Shown in pieces: positions 2,090-15,275 of a DNA stretch of 32,000 bases. Every line of letters begins with the position of its first letter. Position 1 is the stretch's first letter. A model generated the notes under the pieces. It did no database searches. It saw only the letters and a list, made by a program, of their open reading frames with translations, and was not told where the DNA came from. This DNA is from Candidatus Iainarchaeum sp. Its GTDB lineage: Archaea > Iainarchaeota > Iainarchaeia > Iainarchaeales > JACQJH01. Position numbers and translations under genes: made by a program. The stretch is taken from assembly GCA_016205145.1 (NCBI GenBank), contig JACQJH010000001.1, forward strand, positions 450,001-482,000. The letters are read 5' to 3'.

Positions 2090-2920
2090 ATGACAAAACT
2101 TGGGGAAATGGACGCAAAATCTTCTGCGCAGATTCCAAACAGCTTGGTTCTCGCGGCAAGCATATTTATTTCGGCGCTGATTTTATCGGCATCTGTCCTG
2201 ATGGTGGGCAATTCCATTACAACTGAAATTTCAAAGCTTTCAGGCCTGGCGCTTGCGCCGGCAAATGCAGGCGGAACAGGAACCCAAGAGCAAAACGTTC
2301 CTTCGCCCGCGCAGGCTGCGCCTTCTCCTGAGCCGGCGGCGCCCGAAATTTCGCTGAAAACGGTTTCAGGCAATGCAGCCGGAGTCATGGGCGAGGACAA
2401 TGCGCCGGTTACAATCGTGGAATATTCCGATTTCCAGTGCCCGTTCTGCAGGCGCCATTACACTGAAACGCACCAGCAGCTGATAGACAATTACGTGAAG
2501 ACCGGCAAGGCAAAGCTTGTTTTCAAGGATCTGCCTTTGGACTTCCATCCTTCGGCTTCAATGGCCGCGAACGCGGCAAGGTGCGGCGCGGAGCAGGGAA
2601 AGTTCTGGGAAGCGCATGACGCAATCTTTGACATGCAGCAGGCAAAGGATCCCAGCGGGGGAACCGTGCAGTTTTCTGCGCAGGACGTCAAGGATGCCGT
2701 CGCGAAGATTTCCGGAATCGACGCAACAAAGTTCAATTCGTGCGTTGACAGCAGCAAGTATGCAAGCGATGTGAAGGCAAGCTACACCGAAGGCTTTTCC
2801 ATCGGCATAAACGGCACGCCGAGCTTTGTCATCGGACCGACGGACGGCAAGGGCCAGATTGTCGTTGGGGCGCAGCCTTTCGCGACATTCAAGGCGGTCG
2901 TAGACGGGTATTTGGGCTGA
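2090..2920 (+). CDS. membrane-anchored DsbA-family thiol:disulfide oxidoreductase (CPFC active site)
   Basis: Contains the motif EYSDFQCPFCRRHY and the DsbA helical insert (FHPSA...ARCGAEQGKFWEAHD). It has an N-terminal TM and a Pro/Ala-rich linker. I chose ATG 2090 because GGGGGAG lies 4 nt upstream; the track start 2072 is an alternative. Confidence 0.85.
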   Translation: MTKLGEMDAKSSAQIPNSLVLAASIFISALILSASVLMVGNSITTEISKLSGLALAPANAGGTGTQEQNVPSPAQAAPSPEPAAPEISLKTVSGNAAGVMGEDNAPVTIVEYSDFQCPFCRRHYTETHQQLIDNYVKTGKAKLVFKDLPLDFHPSASMAANAARCGAEQGKFWEAHDAIFDMQQAKDPSGGTVQFSAQDVKDAVAKISGIDATKFNSCVDSSKYASDVKASYTEGFSIGINGTPSFVIGPTDGKGQIVVGAQPFATFKAVVDGYLG

Positions 2921-2989
2921 AACCCAAATACCCCACTTTCTTTCTTTTCATTTTTTTGCGGGCTGGTGCAATTGGATTTTTTTGATTCC

Positions 2990-3517
2990 ATGAACGCGAA
3001 AACCGCGCATCTTTCCAGAGCTTTCCGCATTGTGTTTTCCCGGCCCAAATATTCGCTTCTTGCCATTTTTCTTGCCATGGCTCTTTTTTTGGGTGTAAAC
3101 TTTCTTGTCAACTGGCGCCTGCTTTCGGGTTTCGTGCTTGGAAACTTTCCGCTGTCAAACAAAATCACGGTCCTTTCCGGATTAGCGCAGGGAAGCCTGC
3201 TAAACAACACGACTGAAACTTTTTTTTCCTTCGCCGTCGTGTCATTGCTAATCGGCGTGAACGTTTCGCTTTTCGCCTATCGCATCAGGCATTCGGGCTT
3301 GGACAAAAAGGCGGGCGCGAGCGGCATTCTGGGCGGGTTTTTCGGGCTGTTTGCCGCGGGCTGCACGGCCTGCACGCTTTCGCTTGTGGCATTTTTCGGT
3401 TTCGCGGGATTGTTTGCGCTGCTGCCTTTCAGGGGCTTTGAAGTGTGGGCATTGGGAATCGCGGTCCTCATGTTGAGCATTTACTGGAATTCGAAAAGCA
3501 TCTGCGGAGTCTGCTAG
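2990..3517 (+). CDS. 4-TM membrane protein, CxxC paralog 1 (TM3 GCTACT, C-terminal SICGVC)
   Basis: Four hydrophobic segments, a basic TM2-TM3 loop (YRIRHSGLDKK), an intramembrane CTAC and a terminal CGVC. It is a paralog of 8247-8717 and 11225-11701. The start is ATG 2990 or GTG 2966. Confidence 0.75.
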   Translation: MNAKTAHLSRAFRIVFSRPKYSLLAIFLAMALFLGVNFLVNWRLLSGFVLGNFPLSNKITVLSGLAQGSLLNNTTETFFSFAVVSLLIGVNVSLFAYRIRHSGLDKKAGASGILGGFFGLFAAGCTACTLSLVAFFGFAGLFALLPFRGFEVWALGIAVLMLSIYWNSKSICGVC

Positions 3518-3529
3518 CAGTTCGGGGGA

Positions 3530-4096
3530 ATGCGCATGGGCCTGACAAAACACGAAAGGAAACAGCTGAAAAAAACGGAACGGCTTGAAAGCGAAAGGAC
3601 CCTTGGCGAAAAAAAGCGGAAGGAAAATTTCCTGAAAAACGCGGGCATGGCAATCCTTGCAATCGCGGTTGTCGCGGCAATCGCCTTTTTTGCGTTGCAG
3701 GCAAATGCCAACAGGCCCAAACTGGACACGCGCGGCATTTCCTTTCCGTTGGTGAACGTGCACTGGCACGCCACGCCCCGCATTTTTTTGTGCGGCGGGG
3801 AAAAGTTGATTCCGACGCCGCCTGAAACAAATCCTTTGCTGCACACGCATGAGGACAGGCTCATCCACATCGAAGGCAGCGTTTCCGGGCCGGAGCAGAT
3901 AACCCTGGAAAGGTTTTTTGACGGCATCGGCATAAAGTTTTCTTCAACCGGAATCTGGGGCAAAAGGAACGGCGACACCTGCGAAAACACGGGCAAGGCG
4001 GGAAAGGTTTCAATGAAGGTCAACGGTTCCGCAAACACTGAGTTCCAGAATTTTGTGCCAAAGGACGGCGACGTGATAGAAATTCGTTTTGAATAG
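3530..4096 (+). CDS. membrane-anchored exported protein with HWH / HTHED motifs (unknown function, possible metal site)
   Basis: 188 aa with a K/E-rich N-terminus, one TM, then VNVHWHATPRIFLCGG...LLHTHEDRLIHIEG...VNG...DGDVIEIRF. GGGGG precedes ATG 3530/3536. Confidence 0.7.
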   Translation: MRMGLTKHERKQLKKTERLESERTLGEKKRKENFLKNAGMAILAIAVVAAIAFFALQANANRPKLDTRGISFPLVNVHWHATPRIFLCGGEKLIPTPPETNPLLHTHEDRLIHIEGSVSGPEQITLERFFDGIGIKFSSTGIWGKRNGDTCENTGKAGKVSMKVNGSANTEFQNFVPKDGDVIEIRFE

Positions 4097-4106
4097 GCGT
4101 TGTGAC

Positions 4107-4301
4107 ATGAATAAAGTGAAACAAACCGCGTTGTTCACCTGCCCGGAATGCGGCGCAAAATCGGAAATAGCGGTTCCAACCGGCAGGTGCCTTGCCTTTC
4201 ACGAATGCGTGGCATGCCATAAAATCATCGCGGCAAAAAAATCCTGTTGCGTCATCTGCGACTACTCCGACAAGAAGTGCCCTGTTTCAGCAAAACACTG
4301 A
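4107..4301 (+). CDS. small Cys-rich protein resembling the GDCCVxC-domain family (10 Cys in 64 aa)
   Basis: Sequence MNKVKQTALFTCPECG...FHECVACH...KKSCCVICDYSDKKCP. It lies 10 nt after the previous stop. Confidence 0.6.
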   Translation: MNKVKQTALFTCPECGAKSEIAVPTGRCLAFHECVACHKIIAAKKSCCVICDYSDKKCPVSAKH

Positions 4302-4364
4302 CTGGCCGCACTTTTGATTGTTTGGCTTTTTTTTGGCGCTCAGGGGCTGTTCCGCTTTTTCCAC

Positions 4365-4411
4365 ATGGTTTCAACAACGGTTATCTATGGTTTCAGCCGC
4401 ATTGTTTGCAT
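4365..4411 (+). promoter_or_regulatory. shared promoter/operator module, copy A (ATGGTTTCAAC-N11-ATGGTTTCAGC-N7-TTTGCAT)
   Basis: It aligns colinearly, with no indels and 37/47 identity, to 10681-10727. The first spacer contains a TATA-like TTATCTAT. It lies 42-88 nt upstream of ATG 4453. Confidence 0.55.
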
Positions 4412-4452
4412 CAGAGCCTGATTCAGGCAATGTTTTTGCGGAGGAGACGGAA

Positions 4453-5130
4453 ATGCAGGGTTGTTGCGGGGAAGGGCACAAGTCCGGTTCCCATAAGTCT
4501 GGTTCGGCTGGCCAGCAAGCGGAATTCAAAACCAGTGCCGGCGGCAAAAAGCTGGGTTTTGGAAAAACCGCATTGACTGTGGTTTTGGCCTTGGCTGTTG
4601 TAGCAGGACTGCTGTTTTTCCTTCGCCCCGGCTCGACTGGACAGGTGTCCGCAACCGCGACGGGCAATACTGTCGGTGCTGTGGCGCCGGGTTTTGAGTT
4701 GAAGGACATTGCCGGAAACAGCGTGAAGCTGAGCGATTTCAAGGGCAGGGCTGTCATACTTTTTTTCAACGAGGGCGGAATGTGCTATCCTTCGTGCTGG
4801 AACCAGATAAAGGCTCTGGCAACGGATGAAAGGCTTAACAACGAAAACGTGGCGTCTTTCTCCGTGGTGGTTGACAACACTTCGGACTGGGAGAAAATCA
4901 CGGCTCACGTGCCCGGCTTTTCGCAGTCGGGCCTGCTCTTCGACACTTCAAAGGTTGTTTCGTCAAGTTACGGGGCGCTGAACATGCCGTCTTCGATGCA
5001 TGGCGGCATGATGCCGGGGCACACATATTATATCATCGGAAAGGACGGCAAAATAAAGTTCATTTTCGACGACCCGCAGATGGGCGTGAGGAACGACCTG
5101 CTTGCCGCTGAAATAGCAAAGCTGGTTTGA
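4453..5130 (+). CDS. membrane-anchored thioredoxin-fold (redoxin/TlpA-like) protein with an N-terminal MQGCCGEGH tail
   Basis: APGFELKDIAGNSVKLSDFKGRAVILFFNEGGMCYPSCW is a redoxin-type beta-alpha-beta with the Cys pair spaced CxxxC. It has one TM. I chose ATG 4453 because GGAGGAG lies 6 nt upstream and the promoter module would otherwise fall inside the ORF. Confidence 0.75.
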   Translation: MQGCCGEGHKSGSHKSGSAGQQAEFKTSAGGKKLGFGKTALTVVLALAVVAGLLFFLRPGSTGQVSATATGNTVGAVAPGFELKDIAGNSVKLSDFKGRAVILFFNEGGMCYPSCWNQIKALATDERLNNENVASFSVVVDNTSDWEKITAHVPGFSQSGLLFDTSKVVSSSYGALNMPSSMHGGMMPGHTYYIIGKDGKIKFIFDDPQMGVRNDLLAAEIAKLV

Positions 5131-5155
5131 CGGCTGGATTGTTTTTGGTGGTGGC

Positions 5156-6034
5156 GTGGGCGAACTGCTTTTAGGCGCGTCAATAATAACCGCTTTTGTG
5201 GCGGGAGTCGCGGCATTGTTCGCGCCGTGCTGCATTACCGTGCTCTTGCCCGCCTACCTCGGCTCGGTTTTCAGGCAGATGCGCACGGTTTTCCTCATGA
5301 CTTTCGTTTTCTTCCTGGGCCTGCTCGCGGTTTTCCTGCCGCTCGGCCTCGGCTTCGCGGCGCTCGGCGAAGCGTTCAGGCAGTTTCACGACGTCATTTT
5401 CGTCGGCGGAAGCGTTTTCCTCATAGTGCTTGGCGCCTCGATGCTTTTGGGAAAGCACTTTTCAATGCCATTTGCACCGCGCCCGTCTCCAAAAGTTACT
5501 GGTGCGGTTTCGGTTTTCGCGCTCGGCGTGTTCTCCGGCATAGCGACGCTTTGCTGTGCGCCCGTGCTTGCCGGAGTGCTGGCGCTTTCGATAATGCCGG
5601 GTTCGGTTTTCTGGGGCGGAGTCTACTCGCTGGCTTACGTGCTTGGCATGACGATTCCGTTGTTCGTAATTGCCTTCGCGCTTGACAAGTCGGATGCCCT
5701 TGAAAAAATCCGGCTGCTCAACAGGACCGTCGAATACGGCTTCGGCGGAGAAAAAATCAGCCTGCTTGCATCCGAAATGGTTGCAGCGTTGATGTTCATC
5801 GGAATGGGCTTGCTGACGATTTACTTTTTCATGACCGGGCAGCTTGCACAAAATTCCGGCTTCCAGGTTTCCACGAACGTGATGCTTGCAGGAGTGGCGG
5901 ATTTTGCCTCGAAGTATTTTTCGTGGGCACCGCCGGTTGCATTGGCGGGCGCGGTTGCGCTGATTTTGGCCGGCCTGGCGTTCATTGCCTTCAAAGAGAA
6001 GCATGGCCGGGGAAACGAAAAAAGGGAATCCTGA
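5156..6034 (+). CDS. CcdA/DsbD-family transmembrane thiol-disulfide (or thiophilic metal) transporter
   Basis: Polytopic, with two pseudo-repeats: FAPCCITVLLP (C25, C26) and TLCCAPVLAG (C133, C134). GTG start with GGTGGTGG upstream. It directly follows the redoxin gene. Confidence 0.75.
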   Translation: MGELLLGASIITAFVAGVAALFAPCCITVLLPAYLGSVFRQMRTVFLMTFVFFLGLLAVFLPLGLGFAALGEAFRQFHDVIFVGGSVFLIVLGASMLLGKHFSMPFAPRPSPKVTGAVSVFALGVFSGIATLCCAPVLAGVLALSIMPGSVFWGGVYSLAYVLGMTIPLFVIAFALDKSDALEKIRLLNRTVEYGFGGEKISLLASEMVAALMFIGMGLLTIYFFMTGQLAQNSGFQVSTNVMLAGVADFASKYFSWAPPVALAGAVALILAGLAFIAFKEKHGRGNEKRES

Positions 6035-6050
6035 TGGGAGGGATGAAAAC

Positions 6051-6260
6051 GTGATTGCAAAAATAATCGAAAGCGCAAAGCGCAACCATCTCGCGCAGAT
6101 GGCAATCTGCTGCCTCTTGCCGGTGCTGCTGATAATCGCGTTGCAGCTTTTGGGTTACACGGGTTTCTGGGTTTATGCCCTGGCCCTCGCTTTGTGCATC
6201 GGCTCGCACATTGCAATGGCGGCTATTGGCGCGAAAAAAGAGGGGCAGTCATGCCATTAG
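6051..6260 (+). CDS. small 2-TM protein resembling DUF2933 (metal-resistance-associated)
   Basis: Sequence HLAQMAICCLLPVLLIIALQLL...LALCIGSHIAMAA...SCH. GTG 6051 is preceded by GGGAGGGA at 6 nt. ATG 6003 is an alternative start. Confidence 0.5.
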   Translation: MIAKIIESAKRNHLAQMAICCLLPVLLIIALQLLGYTGFWVYALALALCIGSHIAMAAIGAKKEGQSCH

Positions 6261-6376
6261 ACTTAGGAAAGCACCGCGGCTGGCTGGAAAACGCCTTCTG
6301 GCTTCTCGTGCTCGCAGTCGCATACATTGCAATGCAAAAAGCAATGCATCCCGGCTGGACGGTTTTCGGAATCTGA
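6251..6376 (+). CDS. 41-aa single-TM peptide
   Basis: ATG 6251 overlaps the end of the previous ORF, with AGAGGGG 5 nt upstream. The hydrophobic core is AFWLLVLAVAYIAM. Confidence 0.35.
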   Translation: MPLDLGKHRGWLENAFWLLVLAVAYIAMQKAMHPGWTVFGI

Positions 6377-6464
6377 ATCCGCCGGGTGTATTTAGCCTGA
6401 TTTGGAAAAACTAATATAAATGCCGCTGCGCATCCATTAAAAACGCAGGAGGGCGGGATTAATC

Positions 6465-8189
6465 ATGGCGGGATTTGATGGCAGGACTGTCATTGGCTTG
6501 GCTTTGGTGGCCGTAATCGTGTTTGGGGCGGCGTTTTACATTGGCACATCCGGAAATTCCGGAATGCGTTCAGAGACGCGGCCGGCCGGAAGCGCGGCCG
6601 GGCAAACGGGCGCGGCATTCCCTTCCGGTGAATTGTCCGCCGGCGACAGGGCCATGATGGAGCACTGCAAGTCCATGCCGCAAATGCCGGGGTGCGAAAA
6701 ATTCGCCGGTCAGGAAGCCGCCGCAAATGGCGGTGCGGGTGCAAACGCCGGTTACTCTGATTCAGTTGCCGGGCTTTCCGCGGCAGGCGGAACCGCGGTT
6801 TATGATGCGAAAGACGGCGGAAAAATAACCCTGTCAGCGTCGGCCGTCAAAAAAACCGTTGCCGGCACGGAAGTCAGGATGCTTGCATACAACGGCCAGA
6901 TTCCGGGACCCACGATAAGAGTGAAACAGGGAAGCTCTCTGGAAGTGGAATTCATAAACGGCCTTGACTCCGAAACGACTGTGCACTGGCACGGCGTGAG
7001 AGTAAAAAACGATTTTGACGGCGTTCCGGGCGTGACGCAAAAGCCGGTCAAGCCCGGGGAAAAGTTTGTCTACCCGCTGGAGTTTCCGGACGAGGGCATA
7101 TACTGGTATCATCCGCACATGAGAGAGGACTACCAGCAGGAGCTCGGGCTTTACGGCAACATCATCGTCGAGCCGTCCGATGAAGGCTCTTACAACAAGG
7201 TCAACCGCGAAATGACGCTTGCGCTTGACGACATTCTGATGGAAGGCAATGGCATTGCCGCGTTCTCCGCCGATTTTGCGACGCATTCCCTGATGGGAAG
7301 GTTCGGGAACGTGATGCTGGTCAACGGCAGTGACAAATTTGAAATGGCCGCGCTGAAAGGCGAAACTGTGAGGTTTTTCGTCACGAATGCCGCGAACGCA
7401 AGGACATTCAACTTGGTTTTCGGGGGATTGAAGTTGAAGGTTGTCGGCGCGGACAGCGGAAAGTATGAAAAAGAATTTTTCGCGGACTCGGTTGTGGTGG
7501 CGCCGTCGGAAAGGTACGTTGTGGAAGTGCTGTTTGACGGGGAGGGAACATACAACATCCTCAATTCGACGCCTGAAGGAAAAACGGTTCTCGGCAAAAT
7601 AGCCGTGTCGGGCCGGCAGGCGGAAGAGGATTATTCCAAGGAGTTTTTTGAAACAATGGAAAATTCCCGGGTTGCTGACAGCATTTCCGGCATGAGGCGG
7701 TATTTTGACAAGCCCGCGGACCATGAAATAAGAATCGGCGTGGACCTGATGGGCATGAGTCATGGCAGCATGGCGATGGCTCAGGGAACCGGCGGCATCG
7801 AGTGGGAGGACGAAATGCCGCAAATGAACCTGGCCATGAACAGCAGGATAATGGAATGGCAGTTCATTGACGTGAAAACCGGGAAAAAGAACGAGGGCAT
7901 AAGCTATGAGTGGAAAAAAGGCGACAAAATCAAGTTGAGGATTTTCAACGACCCGGATTCCGCGCACCCCATGCAGCACCCGATCCATTTGCACGGCCAA
8001 AGGTTCCTGGCCATAAGCAGTGACGGGGTGGAAAGCGAAAACCTGGCGTGGAAGGACACGGTTCTGGTCCCGTCGGGTTCCACGGCGGACATTCTTGTGG
8101 ATGTCTCGAATCCCGGAAAATGGATGCTGCACTGCCATGTCCCGGAACACATGGAAAGCGGAATGCACACGACGGTAAACGTAATATGA
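6465..8189 (+). CDS. multicopper oxidase (CueO/CopA-like cuprous oxidase), N-terminally membrane-anchored
   Basis: All four MCO copper motifs are present: HWHG, WYHPH, HPIHLHG and HCHVPEHMESGM. There are Met-rich segments (MMEHCKSMPQMPGC; MGMSHGSMAMAQG...MPQMNLAMNSRIM). GGAGGGCGGG lies upstream of the ATG. Confidence 0.92.
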   Translation: MAGFDGRTVIGLALVAVIVFGAAFYIGTSGNSGMRSETRPAGSAAGQTGAAFPSGELSAGDRAMMEHCKSMPQMPGCEKFAGQEAAANGGAGANAGYSDSVAGLSAAGGTAVYDAKDGGKITLSASAVKKTVAGTEVRMLAYNGQIPGPTIRVKQGSSLEVEFINGLDSETTVHWHGVRVKNDFDGVPGVTQKPVKPGEKFVYPLEFPDEGIYWYHPHMREDYQQELGLYGNIIVEPSDEGSYNKVNREMTLALDDILMEGNGIAAFSADFATHSLMGRFGNVMLVNGSDKFEMAALKGETVRFFVTNAANARTFNLVFGGLKLKVVGADSGKYEKEFFADSVVVAPSERYVVEVLFDGEGTYNILNSTPEGKTVLGKIAVSGRQAEEDYSKEFFETMENSRVADSISGMRRYFDKPADHEIRIGVDLMGMSHGSMAMAQGTGGIEWEDEMPQMNLAMNSRIMEWQFIDVKTGKKNEGISYEWKKGDKIKLRIFNDPDSAHPMQHPIHLHGQRFLAISSDGVESENLAWKDTVLVPSGSTADILVDVSNPGKWMLHCHVPEHMESGMHTTVNVI

Positions 8190-8246
8190 GCGGCTGCCCG
8201 GAACCGGTTTTAATAACTGCGTTGCGGATTCATTCCGTGGCATAAA

Positions 8247-8717
8247 ATGCGAAAATGGTGGCAAGTGGACAAAAAAATAAAATTCCTGTTGGTTGGGGCG
8301 GGGCTTTCAATTCTGCTTTTCATAATCATGGGAACGCCCACGGCCCTCGTGCCCAACCCATTCATTCACTACAAGAGGATGGTTGCCGCGGCATGGTTGG
8401 ACTATTTTTTTCTCGCCTCAACCTCGATAATGCTTGCGGCATTGATTTCGCTGAAACTGTATTTCAGGTCGGGGCGCGGCCTCGGCGCAAAAGAAATCGG
8501 CGGGGGCGCGCTGGGCTTTCTTGCGTTCAGCTGCCCGATTTGCAATGCTCTTCTCGTGGCTTTGCTCGGCGGCGCGACGATAATGGCGTTCGTGGAGCCG
8601 TTGAGGCCGCTGTTTGGAGTCGTGTCGATTGCGATTTTGGGTTGGCTTATTTATGGCGCGCTGAAATGCGGGGGATGCAATGGCGCCGCAGGCCGGCACG
8701 GCATGAAAATTAATTAA
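8247..8717 (+). CDS. 4-TM membrane protein, CxxC paralog 2 (TM3 SCPICN, C-terminal KCGGCNG)
   Basis: Same architecture as 2990-3517. Cys96/99 lie in TM3 and Cys141/144 at the C-terminus. It starts 57 nt after the MCO stop. Confidence 0.75.
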   Translation: MRKWWQVDKKIKFLLVGAGLSILLFIIMGTPTALVPNPFIHYKRMVAAAWLDYFFLASTSIMLAALISLKLYFRSGRGLGAKEIGGGALGFLAFSCPICNALLVALLGGATIMAFVEPLRPLFGVVSIAILGWLIYGALKCGGCNGAAGRHGMKIN

Positions 8718-8756
8718 TCTGCTTGCATTTACATACAATCTGTTGCGGTGCTTGGA

Positions 8757-9455
8757 ATGGCGTTTCCTTTGAACCCCTGGCTTTTCGGCTCGGCCGCCCT
8801 GCTGTTGTTGTGGCTGGCCATATGGCTTTTCAGGCCCGCTTTGCGCAGGGAAATGCTTTTGGTCAGCCTTTTCACCGCGCCTTTGGGTCTGACGGAACCG
8901 CTTTTTGTGCCCGAATACTGGACTCCGCCTTCGCTGTTCAACCTTGCCGCCACAACGGGCTTTGACATTGAAAGCATAGTCTTCTGCTTTGCCGCCGGGG
9001 GAATAGCGGCGGTCATCTACGAAATCCTGGTGAAATCGAGGCACAGTGAAATGTCCATGAATGAAATGCGTTCTAAACGGCACAGGTTCCACAAAATCGC
9101 GCTCGCCTCTCCCGCAATCGTTTTCGTGCCCCTGTACCTTTTTTCCGGCCTGAACCCGATATATGTTTCAATAATTGCGCTGTTTGCCGGCGCAATGGCG
9201 ACTGTCGTGTGCAGGCCGGATTTGAAGAAACCGGTCTTAACCGGAGGAACAGTATTTTTGCTCATCTATTTCTTTTTCTTCCTGTTTTTGAGCGTGGCAT
9301 TCCCGGATTTTGTGCCGAACGCGTGGAATTTTTCGGCCATCAGCGGCATTCTTGTTTTCGGCGTCCCTTTTGAGGAGCTGCTGTTCGCGCTTTCCTTTGG
9401 AATGGCGTGGGCGGGCCTTTACGAGCATTTTTTCTGGAAAAAACTGGTTCGTTAG
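8757..9455 (+). CDS. polytopic membrane protein, possibly of the lycopene-cyclase-domain (CrtYc/d-like) family
   Basis: About 7 hydrophobic segments, with repeated motifs FDIESIVFCFAAGG and VPFEELLFALSFG that resemble the PxEE(x)LF signature. The functional assignment is weak. GTG 8748 is an alternative start. Confidence 0.5.
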   Translation: MAFPLNPWLFGSAALLLLWLAIWLFRPALRREMLLVSLFTAPLGLTEPLFVPEYWTPPSLFNLAATTGFDIESIVFCFAAGGIAAVIYEILVKSRHSEMSMNEMRSKRHRFHKIALASPAIVFVPLYLFSGLNPIYVSIIALFAGAMATVVCRPDLKKPVLTGGTVFLLIYFFFFLFLSVAFPDFVPNAWNFSAISGILVFGVPFEELLFALSFGMAWAGLYEHFFWKKLVR

Positions 9456-9485
9456 GCCAATCAGGCAACCGGCAAAGGCTTCCGG

Positions 9486-9911
9486 TCAGTGCGCGCCGCC
9501 GCCCTTGAAAGTCCGCGCGCAGTGCCTGCAGCAGAATTTCAGGGTTTTTCCGTTTATTTTTTCCGTGTGGCCGCCTTCATAGACCATGCAGGCGCAGTGC
9601 GCGCACTGCGAAAGCTTCGGTTCCACGGCAAGGTCTATGAGGCCGCCGAACCTGTGCAGCATCGACTTGCAGAACGCCTTGCCTTCCGGCGTCAGAGCGT
9701 AAACCTTTTTTTCCCTCGCGCCCTCTGATTTGACCCGGATGTATTTTGCCTTTTCAAGTTTTGCGAGGAAAGGGTAGATCTGGCCGGGTGAAACCCTGCT
9801 TTCGAGCCTTTCGCTTATCTCCTTTATGAGCTCGTAGCCGTGCCTGGGGCCGTCGCACAGAAGAAGCATGCAATAGAATTTGGCCATGTTTGTGATCCTG
9901 ATTTCTTTCAT
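9486..9911 (-). CDS. PadR-type winged-helix regulator fused to a C-terminal TRASH metal-binding domain
   Basis: The N-terminal half (LLLCDGPRHGYELIKEI...GQIYPFLAKLEKAKYI...YALTPEG) is PadR-like. The C-terminus CAHC-x20-CCRHC fits the TRASH pattern C-x2-C-x19-22-C-x3-C. Confidence 0.85.
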   Translation of the reverse strand: MKEIRITNMAKFYCMLLLCDGPRHGYELIKEISERLESRVSPGQIYPFLAKLEKAKYIRVKSEGAREKKVYALTPEGKAFCKSMLHRFGGLIDLAVEPKLSQCAHCACMVYEGGHTEKINGKTLKFCCRHCARTFKGGGAH

Positions 9912-9952
9912 TGCGGTCAGGCGGATTTATCTGGGAAAACGTTTAAATATTT

Positions 9953-9973
9953 ATATATCTAAATTTGATATAT
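9953..9973. promoter_or_regulatory. palindrome ATATATC-N7-GATATAT in the divergent promoter region
   Basis: Perfect 7-bp inverted repeat embedded in TATA-like sequence. It lies 42-62 nt from the PadR-TRASH ATG and 70-90 nt from ATG 10043. Confidence 0.45.
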
Positions 9974-10042
9974 CTGTTTTCTGGGCATCATTTTTCTGAG
10001 CGTCATTTGGGCTGGCAACAATTTTTTTTGGGGTGGTTTGCA

Positions 10043-10630
10043 ATGGTGGAAAAATCGGGTTTGCTGGCATTGGTTGTATTGGCGGGTTTAATCGCGTTGC
10101 CTGTTGCAATGGCGCAGGGTTCGGATGATTTTGCGCAGGCGAAGGCGCTGATCGACAGGAATGCGTCCTGCGGCAGCCTGAGCAGCGAACAGCTTGAACT
10201 GATCGGCGATTATGTGATGGAGCAGATCCATCCCGGCGAAGCCCACGAATATGTGGAATCGATGATGGGCGGCGAGGGCTCGGATAGCCTGAAACGGGCG
10301 CACATTGCCATGGCTTACAGGTTCTACTGTGCAGGCTTAGGTTCTGGGTTGAACGCAAACAGCCCGTATTATGGCGTAATGGGCGGCTATGGGATGATGG
10401 GTGGCATGATGTACGGCAACTATGGCGGGATGATGGGTTCTGGCAATGCCTATTCCACTTATGGGCTTATGGGATACGGCGGCGGAACCGCAAATTATCC
10501 TGGAATGATGGGCTATAATGCGTCAACCGGCGGCCTTGGCCTGCTTACGCAGGTCTTGTTTGTGGTGGCGCTTGGTCTCGCAGTTCTGTTCCTTGGCATT
10601 AAAGTCTTCGGGCAATTTCAAAAGCGGTGA
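10043..10630 (+). CDS. secreted Met/Gly/Tyr-rich protein with a C-terminal TM anchor (putative Cu(I)-binding)
   Basis: Signal-like N-terminus LLALVVLAGLIALPVAMAQG. A helical domain carries HPGEAHEYVESMMGGEG. A low-complexity stretch reads YYGVMGGYGMMGGMMYGNYGGMMGSG...PGMMGY. The tail is hydrophobic. Confidence 0.7.
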   Translation: MVEKSGLLALVVLAGLIALPVAMAQGSDDFAQAKALIDRNASCGSLSSEQLELIGDYVMEQIHPGEAHEYVESMMGGEGSDSLKRAHIAMAYRFYCAGLGSGLNANSPYYGVMGGYGMMGGMMYGNYGGMMGSGNAYSTYGLMGYGGGTANYPGMMGYNASTGGLGLLTQVLFVVALGLAVLFLGIKVFGQFQKR

Positions 10631-10680
10631 TTGAGGATTTGGGGTTGAATGTCCTGCGGGTTGTATGCCGGCCCGGAACA

Positions 10681-10727
10681 AAAGGTTTCAGCAATGCCTA
10701 TTTATGGTTTCAGCAGGAATATTTGCA
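10681..10727 (+). promoter_or_regulatory. shared promoter/operator module, copy B (AAGGTTTCAGC-N11-ATGGTTTCAGC-N7-TTTGCAT)
   Basis: It is colinear with 4365-4411. The first spacer contains a TATA-like TATTTAT. It lies 70-116 nt upstream of ATG 10797, the first gene of the cop operon. Confidence 0.55.
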
Positions 10728-10796
10728 TAGTTGTGTTTTTTTGCATCCGGTCTTTTTTATGAATTTTATGGGTGAAGGCTCTAAAGTGGTGGTCAG

Positions 10797-11228
10797 ATGA
10801 ATGAGGTTAAAGTCCAGCGTGTTTTCCTGTTGCTTGTGTTAGGCGCCCTGGTCGTGTTCGGCGGAATGGTTCTGTTTTGGTTTGGCGCTAATGCAGCGCC
10901 CGCCAGATCGGCATCGGTAAATAATCAGGGTATTGTTGCCGGAGGGAACGGCCAGGCACAGGACATTTACATCAGGGCGCTTTCAAGCGGAACCTATGAC
11001 AAAAGCGAGGTCACGGTAAAGAAAGGCGTGCCGGTCAGACTGCATTTTTCCGCTGACCCTGGCGCGGGCTGCGGAAGGTATCTGGTGCTATACGGCCTGA
11101 ACGTCAATGCGCTTTCCAAGAACGGCGAAGAAGCGGTTGTCGACTTCACGCCGCAACAGGAAGGCAGCTTTGAATACAATTGCGGTATGAGAATGTTCAA
11201 ACCCGGAACATTGAAGGTTTTGGCATGA
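10797..11228 (+). CDS. membrane-anchored cupredoxin-like domain protein
   Basis: One TM followed by VTVKKGVPVRLHFSADPGAGCGRYLV...VDFTPQQEGSFEYNCGMRMFKPGTLKV. This is the typical cupredoxin_1-type C...CGM.M pattern seen in cop operons. Confidence 0.75.
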   Translation: MNEVKVQRVFLLLVLGALVVFGGMVLFWFGANAAPARSASVNNQGIVAGGNGQAQDIYIRALSSGTYDKSEVTVKKGVPVRLHFSADPGAGCGRYLVLYGLNVNALSKNGEEAVVDFTPQQEGSFEYNCGMRMFKPGTLKVLA

Positions 11229-11701
11229 GCAGGCTTGAAGCTTTGGCCTTGGTGTTGTCGGAGCGCAGTCAGCTCGCAATATTTCTTGCGGCGTTTGCCG
11301 TGCTTTTGCCTTTGCTGGCAGTCAGCTCGGCAATAATTTCGCCGGTGGGTTTTGCGTTCAATCCTTTGGCTGAACCGCTTGGAATCGCTTTGACAATCGT
11401 CATTGCAATCCTGATGGGCCTGAACCTGACGGTCCTGTTGCATGCCCACGCACGCAATGCAAATGCAAAAAAGGGGACTGTCCTGTTCGGCGGCCTGGCG
11501 GCAACGTTTGCCACTGCCTGCCCTGTTTGCCCGCCGACATGGATTGTCCTGCTCGGCTTCGGCTCGGCCGCGGGCTTTCTTTCTGGAACCGGGATTTTCA
11601 TTGCAATTGGCAGCATAGTCTTGCTTTCATTGGCTCTTTACAATTCTTTGGGTTGCGCAGACGGAAACTGCGGGGTGGACAAGAATGGAAAAAATGATTA
11701 A
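11225..11701 (+). CDS. 4-TM membrane protein, CxxC paralog 3 (TM3 ACPVCP, C-terminal GCADGNCG)
   Basis: ATG 11225 overlaps the cupredoxin stop (ATGA). Cys99/102 lie in TM3 and Cys144/149 at the C-terminus. Same architecture as the other two paralogs. Confidence 0.75.
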   Translation: MSRLEALALVLSERSQLAIFLAAFAVLLPLLAVSSAIISPVGFAFNPLAEPLGIALTIVIAILMGLNLTVLLHAHARNANAKKGTVLFGGLAATFATACPVCPPTWIVLLGFGSAAGFLSGTGIFIAIGSIVLLSLALYNSLGCADGNCGVDKNGKND

Positions 11702-11888
11702 AGTGAAAGGCATGCATTGTAAGTCATGCGAAATCCTTGTCGCGGACTCCGTGTCTGAAATCAGCGGCGTGGAAAGCGTCAAGGCGGACAGCAGGAAGGG
11801 AACTGTTGTGGTGAATGTCCGGGATGCCGGGATTCTCGGCAGGGTGAAAGCCGCGATTGAAAAGGAAGGCTACAAGGTGGAAAACTGA
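11685..11888 (+). CDS. copZ: CopZ-like heavy-metal-associated (HMA) copper chaperone
   Basis: 67 aa with a GMHCKSC motif and a ferredoxin-like HMA length. GGGGTGGA lies 5 nt upstream. Confidence 0.88.
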   Translation: MEKMIKVKGMHCKSCEILVADSVSEISGVESVKADSRKGTVVVNVRDAGILGRVKAAIEKEGYKVEN

Positions 11889-12808
11889 TGGAATTCGAAC
11901 TTGAACTTGGCGGAATGTCCTGCGGCTCATGCGAGCGCATAATCGAAAAGGTTGCCGAGAAAGCCGGCGCGGAAGTCAAGGAAATCGACTCGCGCAAAGG
12001 CAGGGTCACAATCGTTTCCGAGGAATCCAAAATAGCCGGAATAAGGGAAGAGCTTGCCAAGCGCGGCTTTGCCGAAAAGGGCAGCAGGGAAGACGTGGGC
12101 AGGGGCGACCTGAAAAACGTTGTTGGCTACATTTTGGCAGTGCTGTCAATCCAGCCGCACGTCGAAGAGGAAGCCAGGCTCGTCAACCACGCCATTGCGT
12201 CCGCGATTATTTTGGCTGGGCTGAACATTCTGGCTTACCTGTTTTTTGTGCAGGGCCTGGAGAACGGCGAAAAGTACCTTCCATTCCTTGCATTGGCGAT
12301 TGTTGCGTCAATAACATCCGTTTTCGCGTACCTTCACGCCAAATGCTACCGTAAAATCATGTCCTGCCAGAACGGCATGATGGTCGGAATGACCATGGGC
12401 ATGGTTCCGGGCTTCATGGTCGGCGCAATCATTGCCGCGACAAACGGAATGTTTCTTGGCAGCGTGGCCGGAATTCTGACCGGCGCATGGCTTGGCCTGA
12501 AGAGCGGAAAATGCTGCGGCGTAATGGGCGCAATGGAAGGAGTCATGGCCGGCCTGATGTCCGGTTTGATGGGGCCGATGACAGTGATCATGACCCTCAA
12601 CGACAACATGCTCGTTCTGCTTTACCTGATTTTCGGAATCTCTGTTTTTTTGCTCGGCGGCCTGAGCTACATGCTGTACCGCGAGGAAGGCGAAACCCCG
12701 GTTGCGAACACAAAGCTGCCGGAATTCATTGTTCTCGGCATTGCGTTCAATCTTGTGCTGCTGGCGATAATGCTTTTTGCGGTTAAGGGGCCATTGAGGT
12801 TCGTGTGA
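11888..12808 (+). CDS. HMA domain fused to a Met/Gly/Cys-rich ~7-TM membrane domain (unknown family)
   Basis: The N-terminal 62 aa form an HMA domain with GMSCGSC. After a charged linker come TM segments including [18 protein letters not shown] and [30 protein letters not shown] overlap joins it to copZ. Confidence 0.75.
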
Positions 12809-12818
12809 GGGCGATGGC

Positions 12819-15275
12819 ATGAAAAAAATCACAGTCGGCATTAAAGGCATGCATTGCGCTTCCTGCGCCACGATAATCGAGCGTCGCCTCAAAAAAGTTG
12901 AAGGCGTGAAGGATGTCTCTGTCAGCGTCGCGGCAAACAGGGCGGCGATCGAATTTGATGAGGGCATTGCGGGCATTGAACAGTTTGGAAAGGCAGTGGA
13001 AAGTGCAGGGTACGAACTCGTCCAGCCGCAGGGGCAGGATTCCGGCGATGCGAAGATAACAATGCATGTAAAGGGCATGGATTCGCCGCATTGTGCGGGC
13101 ATTGTCGGGAATGCGCTCAAGGGAACCGCTGGAGTGAAAAAATTCGACCTCAGCTTCCAGAATGCCTCGGCAATGGTTGAATTCGATGCCTCCATCACCG
13201 GCTTTGATAAAATAAAGGCTTCGATTGCAAGGGCAGGCTATGATGCGGAACTGCTTGTCGGGGAGGAAACAGTGGACCAGGAGAAGGCCGCACGCGATAA
13301 AGAAATCGCGGAATTGAAGCGCAGGCTCGTTTTTTCGGCATTGCTGACCGTGCCGGTTGTCCTGCTTGCATTGCCGGAAATGCTGAAAACTGTTATGGCA
13401 TTCGAGTACCCGCAGTTCATAATGCAGAACATGGCTGCATTGCAATTGCTGTTTTCAACGCCGGTGATGTACCTTAACAGGGACATGTTTGTGAGGGGCT
13501 TCAGGGGGCTGTTGAATAACATGCCGGGCATGGACAGCCTTGTCGCTTTGGGCGTCGGGACAACCTATGCTTACAGCGCAATCGTGGCCCTGCGCATCAT
13601 TGGCGGAGTCATGTATTTTGAAACCGCTGCTTTGCTTCTCACGTTCATATTGCTTGGCAGGTACCTTGAGGCGATTGCCAAAGGAAAGACTTCCGAGGCA
13701 ATCAAGCGCCTTGTAGGGCTTGCGCCGAAAACCGCAATCGTGGTCAGGGCAGGAAAAGAGGTTGAAATTCCGATCAAGGAAGTTGTTGTCGGGGACATTG
13801 TCATTGTGAAGCCGGGCAGCAAGATTCCGGTTGACGGCGTCATAGTCGAAGGCGAAAGCAGCATTGACGAGAGCATGATTACAGGGGAGAGCATGCCCGT
13901 GCACAAGCGAAAAAATGACATTGTGATCGGCGGGACAATCAACGGCAATGGCTCTTTCAGGTTCAGGGCGACAAAAATCGGCAAGGACACAATGCTTGCG
14001 CAGATAATCCGTTTGGTGGAGGACGCGCAGGCAAGCAAGGCGCCGATCCAGAAGCTTGCAGACACTGTCGCAGGCTATTTTGTGCACGCAGTAATAGTGC
14101 TTGCATTGCTTGCCTTCGCTTACTGGTATTTCGTGGCAGGCCAGCCGTTTCTTTTCGCGCTCACAATCCTTGTTTCAACGCTTGTGATTTCCTGTCCTTG
14201 CGCAATGGGCCTTGCAACCCCGACAGCGGTCATGATTGGAACCGGCAAGGGCGCCGAGAACGGCGTGCTCATAAAAAACGCGGAGAGCCTTGAAATCCTG
14301 CATCAGGCCAAAACCTTTGTGTTCGACAAGACCGGCACAATCACCATGGGAAAGGCGTCGGTAACGGAAATCGTTCCGGTCGGAATCAAGGCAGCCGACC
14401 TTCTTTGCCTTGCGGCTTCCGCGGAAAAGAATTCCGAGCATCATTTAGCGCAGGCAATCGTGAAAAAGGCGAAGGAATCGAGGCTGAAAATTGCAGAACC
14501 GAAATCTTTCAAGGCGATTCCGGGGCATGGCGTCGAGGCAAAAGTCGGGGCGAAGAATGTTCTCATCGGAACTGTTGTCCTGATGAAAAAAAGCGGGGTC
14601 CGGATCGGAAACGATTTGGTTGGCAGGATGCAGTCGCTTGAAGAGCAGGGAAAAAGCGTTGTCCTTGTTTCGTCGGACGGAAAGCTTGTGGGAATGGTTG
14701 CGATTGCCGACACCATAAAAGAGCATGCTGCCGAGGCTGTAAGGCAATTGCAGGCAATGGGTTATGAAACCGTCATGATAACCGGCGACAATTCCCGCAC
14801 TGCAAACGCGATTGCAAAGCAGGCAGGCATTTCAAGGGTGCTGGCGCAGGTGCTTCCGTCGGACAAGGCCGCGGAAGTCAAGAAATTGCAGTTGAACGGA
14901 AGAAAGGTTGCCTTTGTCGGCGACGGCATAAACGATGCCCCGGCCTTGGCGCAGGCCGACATTGGAATCGCGATTGGCAGCGGCACCGACGTTGCGATTG
15001 AAAGCGGCGGAATAGTTTTGGTGAAAAGCGATTTGCGCGACATTGTGACGGCGGTAAAGCTTAGCAAATACACTCTCGGCAAAATAAAGCAGAATCTGTT
15101 CTGGGCTTTCGGCTACAATGCGGTCGGCATTCCGCTCGCGGCAGGCGCATTCTATCCTTTCACCGGCTGGCTTTTGTCGCCGGTCATAGCCGGAGCGGCA
15201 ATGGCTTTCAGCTCGGTAAGCGTTGTTTCGAACAGCCTGCTCATGCGCGGATGGAAACCGGATAAAAAGGTTTGA
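12819..15275 (+). CDS. copA: Cu(I)-translocating P1B-type ATPase
   Basis: 818 aa. HMA1 has GMHCASC. HMA2 is degenerate (GMDSPHCAG). It carries the TM CPC motif ([11 protein letters not shown]), DKTGT, MITGDN and GDGINDAP. Confidence 0.95.

Follow-up and report, generated by a model that had tools for sequence, protein, structure and literature searches.

Three genes in a 32,000-nucleotide (nt) stretch of the genome of Candidatus Iainarchaeum sp. (GenBank assembly GCA_016205145.1, contig JACQJH010000001.1, positions 450,001 to 482,000 of the forward strand; hereafter the window, in which position 1 is the first letter of the stretch) encode paralogous membrane proteins, designated A, B and C, that have four transmembrane (TM) helices, a pair of cysteines within TM3 and further cysteines at the C-terminus. 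As judged by profile comparisons, the TM3-loop-TM4 hairpin of these proteins is descended from a common ancestor with the TM1-TM2 hairpin of the mercury transporter MerT, and the family to which they belong would represent a four-helix C-P-x-C branch of the Mer superfamily that is tied to copper and thiol-redox modules. What A, B and C carry across the membrane is most likely a thiophilic metal, such as Cu(I); they may instead carry electrons.

Genes A (2990-3517), B (8247-8717) and C (11225-11701) all lie on the forward strand. A carries an intramembrane C-T-A-C (GCTACT) and a C-terminal C-G-V-C (SICGVC); B has S-C-P-I-C-N at a break in TM3, an EPLRP loop and a C-terminal C-G-G-C (KCGGCNG); and C has A-C-P-V-C-P in TM3 and a C-terminal C-A-D-G-N-C (GCADGNCG). 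The loops between TM2 and TM3 are YRIRHSGLDKK, FRSGRGLGAK and HAHARNANAKK, respectively. The first terminal cysteine follows the first TM cysteine at 47, 45 and 45 residues and the second TM cysteine at 44, 42 and 42 residues in A, B and C. Upstream, a DsbA-like gene is separated from A by 45 or 69 nt and a multicopper oxidase (MCO) gene from B by 57 nt, while a cupredoxin-like gene and C share an ATGA overlap. The three open reading frames (ORFs), their motifs, the 44, 42 and 42 residue spacing and these gaps agree with the original prediction made from the letters of the window. The 3′ end of C further overlaps the next gene, which encodes an HMA protein, by 17 nt, and the overlap of C with both flanking genes is consistent with translational coupling.

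Similarity between the three proteins is weak but significant (pairwise BLASTP E = 0.004, 8e-6 and 7e-5). A profile constructed from 38 actinobacterial homologs, with no window sequences included, matched exactly A, B and C among all ORFs of the window, with E values of 4e-6, 1.5e-27 and 1.5e-14, respectively. The two results confirm that A, B and C are paralogs with one common architecture, as had been proposed. B is of the core type that is shared with Actinobacteria, and A is a divergent member of a subgroup found next to DsbA-like genes.

The original prediction had recorded no sequence resemblance to MerT, and this was found to be wrong. Comparison of the family with Tn501 MerT, a sequence 100% identical to an annotated merT product, gave 80% in hhalign, and comparison with an alignment of four MerT sequences gave 88%. 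The value rose to 95.1% (E 3e-8) with an alignment of 143 family sequences and to 96.4% (E 1e-9) with the C-terminal half of the family alone. Reversed and 40 column-shuffled MerT profiles scored no higher than 20.8, as compared with 40.6 for the real MerT profile, and control comparisons with the CcdA, lycopene-cyclase-domain, HMA-TM and CopA proteins of the window all remained at or below 4%. When the 143 homologs were scanned with ~43,000 curated hidden Markov models (HMMs), the Pfam MerT model matched 21, the NCBIfam MerT model 28 and the NCBIfam MerTP model 23, with best MerT E values of 2e-5 and 2e-6. No other family recurred more than three times, so MerT is the sole recurrent curated family among the homologs. 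In the other direction, the family profiles also match genuine annotated MerT proteins that are encoded beside merP and merA.

The aligned block extends over residues 79-146 of B and residues 7-78 of MerT. It pairs the G-G-rich helix start, the membrane cysteines, the EPLRP and LEPYRP loops, the second helix, and the C-tail cysteine of B with Cys76 of MerT; hence, TM3, TM4 and the C-terminal cysteine of the family correspond to TM1, TM2 and the cytoplasmic cysteine of MerT. The two N-terminal helices of the family showed no relation to MerT in hhalign. An internal duplication, in which the N-terminal hairpin would be a copy of the C-terminal one, was considered and rejected (hhalign 0.8%).

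The family is large. In an exhaustive profile search of 50%-identity clusters, 1,704 cluster representatives were retrieved at E≤0.001, 598 of them with E≤1e-10; a word-indexed search gave 29 relatives. With the actinobacterial profile as the query, matches were obtained in more than 4,300 90%-identity clusters (E≤1e-10). Bacterial members occur in Nocardioides, Salininema, Micromonospora, Planomonospora, Acidimicrobiales and Gaiellaceae, and archaeal members in Diapherotrites (Iainarchaeum), Woesearchaeota and Aenigmarchaeota. Sequences identical to B and C are on record for a Candidatus Diapherotrites genome. All are annotated either as hypothetical or as integral membrane proteins. As judged from scans of A, B, C and the 143 homologs, the family lies outside every Pfam and NCBIfam model; A, B and C have no match at curated thresholds, and the earlier statement that they belong to no named family therefore stands. 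Literature searches found no MerT-like copper protein and no characterised family member; an apparent mention of MerT in a paper on copper in Kineococcus proved to be the author name Merten.

The C-P-x-C motif is invariant in 143 of 143 sequences, C-T-A-C being found in A and its close relative P0006. The C-terminal cysteines are far more variable, forming a pair in 32 of the 143 sequences, being represented by a single residue in 69 and lacking in 42. In 38 of the 42 sequences that have no cysteine in the C-tail, a cysteine is present in loop 2, 10-35 residues N-terminal of the C-P-x-C, and only four have neither. Conversely, a loop-2 cysteine occurs in 8 and is absent from 93 of the 101 sequences with a C-tail cysteine. 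The two positions are thus near-exclusive alternatives (Fisher p 3e-22, calculated from sequences that are not phylogenetically independent). The A orthologs that adjoin DsbA-like genes, in five other genomes, have the loop-2 arrangement (Q-C-P-A-C-A-S-L-G and P-K-T-C) and no terminal cysteine, and in C-type proteins only the last terminal cysteine is constant. Hence, the four cysteines seen in A, B and C are not conserved as a set: the terminal pair is a trait of a subfamily, and these counts define the conserved unit as the C-P-x-C together with one or more thiols on the side predicted to be cytoplasmic, at either flank of the hairpin. Since most members have three cysteines, trigonal thiolate coordination would suit the family better than a disulfide cascade.

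Averaged over the 143 homologs, the number of lysine and arginine residues is 2.7 in the N-terminus, 2.7 in loop 2 and 2.4 in the C-tail, as compared with 0.4 in loop 3 and 1.5 over the 19 residues of loop 1. By the positive-inside rule, this distribution supports the topology put forward originally, with both termini in the cytoplasm, and places the additional cysteines on the predicted cytoplasmic side, opposite a mid-membrane CxxC. AlphaFold2 (AF2) models were obtained for A (predicted local distance difference test, pLDDT, 73.7) and B (pLDDT 84.3; predicted template modelling score, pTM, 0.75). In the model of B, TM3 is broken exactly at S95-C-P-I-C-N100, in the middle of a hydrophobic stretch of 31 residues.

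The genes that surround A, B and C form an island in which thiol-redox and copper functions are mixed; all lie on the forward strand unless stated otherwise. A follows the gene for a membrane-anchored, DsbA-like thioredoxin-fold protein with a CPFC motif (2072-2920; Pfam Thioredoxin_4, 1e-30, and DSBA, 3e-15). An 11-bp G+C-rich hairpin with a T-rich tail spans the stop codon of this gene just upstream of A (2906-2933) and may be a terminator or attenuator between the two genes. Behind A lies the third gene of a DsbA-A-U188 trio (3530-4096). Its product, the exported and membrane-anchored protein U188, has no Pfam or NCBIfam match; it contains invariant HWH, HxHxD and HxE motifs and two cysteines, and probably binds metal itself. 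Between U188 and the next gene, an ORF at 4089-4301 encodes a cysteine-rich, zinc-ribbon-like protein of 70 aa (CPECG...CHECVAC...CCVIC), a homolog of which precedes CopA in another archaeal locus (L024:4556-4741). Then follow genes for a membrane-anchored TlpA/AhpC-TSA-like thioredoxin-fold protein (4318-5130; Pfam AhpC-TSA, 1.5e-15) and a membrane protein of the CcdA/DsbD_TM family (5156-6034; Pfam DsbD_TM, 2.2e-7). The end of the CcdA gene is overlapped by a 91-aa ORF (5985-6260), which is called as a gene in L012 and whose product ends in S-C-H. The membrane helix of this product, AICCLLPVLLIIALQLLGYTGFW, resembles TM1 of MerT with the canonical CC-x-x-P (hhalign 66.6%, E 5e-5, 25 columns), and the ORF may encode a fourth, MerF/MerE-like protein of the island.

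Upstream of B is the gene for a membrane-anchored, three-domain MCO (6465-8189; Pfam Cu-oxidase_3, Cu-oxidase and Cu-oxidase_2). The only reverse-strand gene described here (9486-9911) encodes a PadR-family regulator with a C-terminal TRASH metal-binding domain (Pfam PadR, 1.2e-16; TRASH_HVO_1752_C, 7e-5); most related loci retain it next to B-type genes and CopA, and it is likely the copper sensor of the island. Next to it lies a gene for an exported protein of 221 aa (9965-10630) with a C-terminal membrane anchor and a low-complexity region rich in Gly, Met and Tyr (GGMMGGMMYGNYGGMMG). This protein, which also adjoins the PadR-TRASH regulator in L006, may serve as a Cu(I) sponge.

The gene that overlaps the start of C (10797-11228) encodes a membrane-anchored, cupredoxin-like protein (Pfam Cupredoxin_1, 1.6e-7) with the motifs G-C-G-R and C-[GS]-M-[RK]-M-F. 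Alignment revealed a conserved Cys/Cys/Met/Met site and no His ligands; thus, the protein seems to bind Cu(I) and not to be a blue-copper protein that awaits metallation. C is followed by genes for a 67-aa HMA (CopZ-like) protein without a signal peptide (11685-11888; Pfam HMA, 1.7e-12), a 306-aa protein that joins an N-terminal HMA domain, detected by a weak match only, to a Met-rich, CC-containing membrane domain with no family match (11888-12808), and a CopA-type Cu(I) P1B-ATPase with HMA motifs and a CPC motif in its translation (12819-15275). The 306-aa protein gene is kept between the HMA gene and CopA. An identical CopA gene in L012 matches Pfam HMA, E1-E2_ATPase and Hydrolase.

Related loci were compared, among them nine from archaeal genomes that were retrieved with a B-type alignment. 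A DsbA-like gene precedes an A-type gene at eight other loci, among them L003, L006, L017 and L021, L108 of Woesearchaeota, L110 of Aenigmarchaeota and, with a gap, L022. This adjacency spans three DPANN phyla, namely Diapherotrites, Woesearchaeota and Aenigmarchaeota, and the full trio with U188 is likewise conserved across the three. As in the window, a U188 homolog follows the A-type gene directly in L006, L017, L021, L022 and L110; the homologs are located at L006:3819-4394, L017:4173-4754, L019:5403-5987, L021:1187-1768 (reverse strand), L022:2974-3564 (reverse strand), L108:965-1549 and L110:5456-6145. The order cupredoxin-like gene, C-type gene, HMA gene recurs in two other genomes, L015 and L017. 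The gene upstream of the B type varies, being an MCO in this genome and L006, U188 in L019, a rhodanese in L020 and an A-type paralog in L003. In L001 and L002, B-type genes are directly preceded by a 409-aa DsbD_TM/ArsG-like membrane protein and a 48-aa cysteine-rich peptide (4610-5998 in both loci); in L024 the 409-aa protein alone stands in this position (2280-3527), and the two occur at a distance of 1.4-5 kb upstream of the B-type gene in L019 and L020. A rhodanese gene adjoins the B-type gene in L002, L006, L017 and L020. B-type genes stay near the PadR-TRASH regulator and CopA.

The proposal that each paralog is dedicated to an exported partner therefore holds for A, with the DsbA-like protein, and for C, with the cupredoxin-like protein, and fails for B. 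A role of B dedicated to the MCO was rejected, as synteny shows the MCO gene before B in this genome and L006 only.

Copper genes found near archaeal family members encode DUF411 proteins, MCOs, CopA and PadR-TRASH regulators, and one archaeal member is flanked by MCOs, a cupredoxin, a ferric-reductase-domain protein and CopA. A 571-aa protein in Woesearchaeota (L108:6201-7916) combines HMA, a DsbD_2 membrane domain and two cupredoxin-like domains, which carry the same Cys...C-x-M-x-M motif as the cupredoxin-like protein of the window. This fusion provides a Rosetta-stone link between a cupredoxin-like module outside, a thiol module in the membrane and HMA inside, and hints that the DsbD-type membrane domains of such islands, too, may carry metal instead of electrons.

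A census of 79 metagenomic actinobacterial loci found DsbA-like genes at 14, CcdA at 11, a BlaI-like repressor at 10, MCOs at 4 and rhodanese at 2. DsbD_TM genes recur beside family members in both Actinobacteria and archaea. One module, in which the family gene is followed by a BlaI/CopY-like repressor, recurs in L088, L077, L049, L083, L089, L100 and L103; in two of these, L077 and L088, the repressor is in turn followed by a gene for an M48 peptidase. The module is divergent from a DsbA-like gene, behind which lies CcdA in all but L077, and may represent a copper- or thiol-stress regulon. Another actinobacterial member adjoins YcnI and CopCD, and a further one is near an MCO and a DUF305 protein.

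The function of A, B and C can be considered by analogy with MerT, for which the model describes transfer from a cysteine pair of MerP to Cys24/25 in the middle of TM1, then to the cytoplasmic Cys76/82 and finally to MerA (PMC5715351). The likeness to the relay logic of MerT that was noted originally is apt. With about even confidence, A, B and C are considered to be MerT-style ligand-exchange relays for Cu(I). The C-P-x-C at the break in the middle of TM3 would form an intramembrane site for a thiophilic metal, in this setting Cu(I), and an exported thiol or thioether site would swap the ion with it. In the case of C, this exported site would be the Cys/Met site of the cupredoxin-like protein, and in that of A, the CPFC of the DsbA-like protein. 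The C-P-x-C would hand the ion to, or take it from, one or two cysteines of the cytoplasmic face, in the C-tail or loop 2, and these would exchange it with the HMA protein. The neighbours, which comprise MCO, CopA, HMA, PadR-TRASH, DUF411 and YcnI/CopCD, make copper the likely cargo.

The three paralogs would then serve three stations of one copper island. C would join the exported Cys/Met cupredoxin-like Cu(I) binder to the cytoplasmic HMA chaperone and CopA, A would act with the exported DsbA-like CPFC protein and the His-rich, exported U188, and B would be a generic form that stays close to CopA and the PadR-TRASH regulator. Reduction of the exposed thiols would be maintained by a CcdA or TlpA partner. 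ScsC and ScsB, a DsbA-like and DsbD-like pair, are documented Cu(I) binders (PMC10907172). The direction would be inward, Cu(I) being taken from extracytoplasmic thiol sites and passed to the cytoplasmic HMA protein, CopA or sensor, in the manner of MerP, MerT and MerA; this direction is favoured only by homology, because all characterised Mer transporters import.

Several observations weigh against a Cu(I) relay of Mer descent. A, B and C fall below every curated MerT threshold and have no Pfam MerT match at E≤1, the only curated match of B being to NCBIfam MerTP (E 0.0021, 17.7 bits against a cut-off of 180). The membrane motif of the family is C-[PT]-x-C and not the vicinal CC of MerT. The family profile gave no match to PDB sequences at E≤10, and Foldseek searches of the PDB with the AF2 models of A and B gave nothing at E≤0.001 (best E >1), so the argument for a common fold is drawn only from sequence profiles. 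In Actinobacteria, the genes that most often adjoin the family encode DsbA-like and CcdA proteins and are not copper genes, and the DsbA-A-U188 trio of L110 has no copper gene nearby, a setting that a thiol-redox role fits at least as well. Import of Cu(I) beside an exporter would also be without a demonstrated rationale.

The neighbours in Actinobacteria and the trio of L110 favour a thiol/disulfide relay, in which reducing or oxidising equivalents would pass by way of the C-P-x-C and the cytoplasmic-side cysteines to the adjacent DsbA-like protein. On this view, the family would, in DPANN archaea, replace DsbB/VKOR in function or form a second channel for reductant like that of CcdA, and it would be an accessory one in Actinobacteria, with A as the DsbA partner proper and B and C as derived forms. 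Such a role, the main rival to a Cu(I) relay, is possible, if on the doubtful side. Its support comes also from the DsbA-like/A-type adjacency, which is the most conserved link of all, and from a 457-aa Micromonospora protein (P0131) with an N-terminal CcdA (DsbD_TM) domain fused to a family domain at residues 302-442, annotated in RefSeq as a CcdA family protein only. In addition, the presence of TlpA-like and CcdA genes makes the layout of the window resemble scsABCD, with its unexplained membrane CX2C protein ScsA (PMC10907172). Against this, the detectable homology points to a metal transporter. No Pfam or NCBIfam match to DsbB or VKOR was found in A, B, C or the 143 homologs, and the only DsbD_TM match among the homologs is the N-terminal part of P0131. 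CcdA and the other membrane oxidoreductases of solved structure showed no similarity in hhalign or Foldseek. In DsbB and VKOR, both cysteine pairs face the outside, whereas the extra cysteines of the family are predicted to be inside, where most members have a single one and no pair. A second reductant channel would be redundant, as CcdA is usually also present, and C appears to be translationally coupled to metal-binding proteins, not to a protein with a thioredoxin fold. It is rather improbable that the trio of DsbA-like protein, A and U188 is a self-contained, quinone-independent machine for disulfide formation or DsbA recycling, in which A would be a MerT-derived equivalent of DsbB/VKOR and U188 a metal-dependent redox partner or substrate.

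Metal could also move the other way. The original prediction had envisaged outward metallation; Cu(I) would then pass from the cytoplasmic HMA protein through the C-tail cysteines and the C-P-x-C to the exported MCO and cupredoxin-like protein. The anatomy of the relay would be the same as for import, with no result that fixes the direction; the HMA gene lies directly 3′ of C, and B follows the MCO gene in this genome and L006. Nevertheless, outward transfer must be regarded as unlikely, given that most loci lack the MCO-B adjacency, that the cupredoxin-like partner lacks blue-copper His ligands, and that MerT, MerC, MerF and MerE, which are all the characterised relatives, import (PMC5715351); moreover, the CopA-type ATPase is the only route for copper from the cytoplasm to the outside that was identified in the window. 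Import of mercury or another soft metal (Ag, Cd, Au) in a cryptic mer-like system would accord with the homology to MerT and with the HMA and cysteine-rich partners, which would bind Hg(II) or Ag(I) too. This is barely credible, as merA, merB, merR and merP were not found in the window or in the ~100 loci examined, and the neighbours are MCO, CopA, DUF411, YcnI/CopCD and PadR-TRASH.

Among known systems, MerT (PF02411; NF010314) has the homologous hairpin, with a G-G-rich cysteine helix, an (L)EPxRP loop, a second helix and a cytoplasmic cysteine. Its membrane cysteines, like those of MerE, are reported to lie near the middle of the helix (PMC5715351), where those of the family lie too. Furthermore, both have an exported thiol metal-binder encoded beside the transporter and a cytoplasmic HMA-type acceptor after it, represented in mer systems by MerP and the N-terminal domain of MerA. 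The family differs from MerT in having C-P-x-C in place of C-C and four helices, of which TM3 and TM4 form the hairpin, with two extra helices at the N-terminus and no counterpart of the third MerT helix. In addition, the family often has a single cytoplasmic cysteine, sometimes before the hairpin, while A, B and C have a pair after it, and its context is one of copper and thiol redox rather than mer genes. Thus, A, B and C are not MerT proteins in the strict sense, as they fall below the thresholds and lack the vicinal CC, the arrangement in three helices and a setting among mer genes; they have the hairpin in common with MerT by descent.

The closest architectural analogs are MerC and the fusions of MerT with HMA domains. 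In the MerTP and MerT/CopZ fusions (NF033556, NF045683), a MerT-type membrane module is coupled to HMA, as C is to the overlapping 67-aa HMA gene, but in the window the HMA protein is separate and the membrane part has four helices and C-P-x-C. MerC (PF03203), with ~140 aa, likewise has four helices, a CxxC inside the membrane and a cytoplasmic pair of cysteines at the C-terminus, as in Alteromonas MerC (GCAMCFP...CDDDSC); its CxxC is located in TM1, whereas that of the family is in TM3. A relationship to MerC was rejected, as hhalign gave 0.5% and the MerC model did not recur among the 143 homologs.

CcdA/DsbD_TM proteins and DsbB/VKOR resemble the family in having membrane-embedded, redox-capable cysteines encoded beside exported thioredoxin-fold genes. 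The fold of CcdA/DsbD_TM is a six-helix inverted repeat with one cysteine per half; A, B and C do not match its model (PF02683), and comparison with the window CcdA in hhalign gave 0.2%. The P1B-type copper ATPases have a Cu(I) site at a CPx motif, that is, Cys-Pro in a kinked membrane helix. This likeness to the C-P-x-C, which is shared by the CPC of the window CopA, is a chemical analogy only, the fold of these ATP-driven pumps being unrelated.

The closest analog by context is ScsA, a small membrane protein of Salmonella scsABCD with a predicted buried CX2C and no known function, which is encoded with ScsC (DsbA-like), ScsB (DsbD-like) and ScsD (TlpA-like) under copper control (PMC10907172). 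The window has the same cast of genes. This comparison is drawn from the published description, which predicts two helices and a lipobox for ScsA and links the protein to tolerance of peroxide, not of copper (PMC10907172).

Whichever function holds, the family carries no name and no curated model despite its size. The result at the level of the family is of more interest than a curiosity of a single genome would be, and less exotic than the supposed lack of known relatives had implied. How copper enters the cell, and how it reaches extracytoplasmic proteins, is poorly understood in both Actinobacteria and DPANN archaea. If the family serves the DsbA-like partner, it would explain DsbA recycling in archaea with small genomes. 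If A, B and C are Cu(I) relays, they would be the first members of the Mer superfamily with a job other than mercury transport, and the family would constitute a new, widespread and ATP-independent route for copper across the membranes of Actinobacteria and DPANN archaea.

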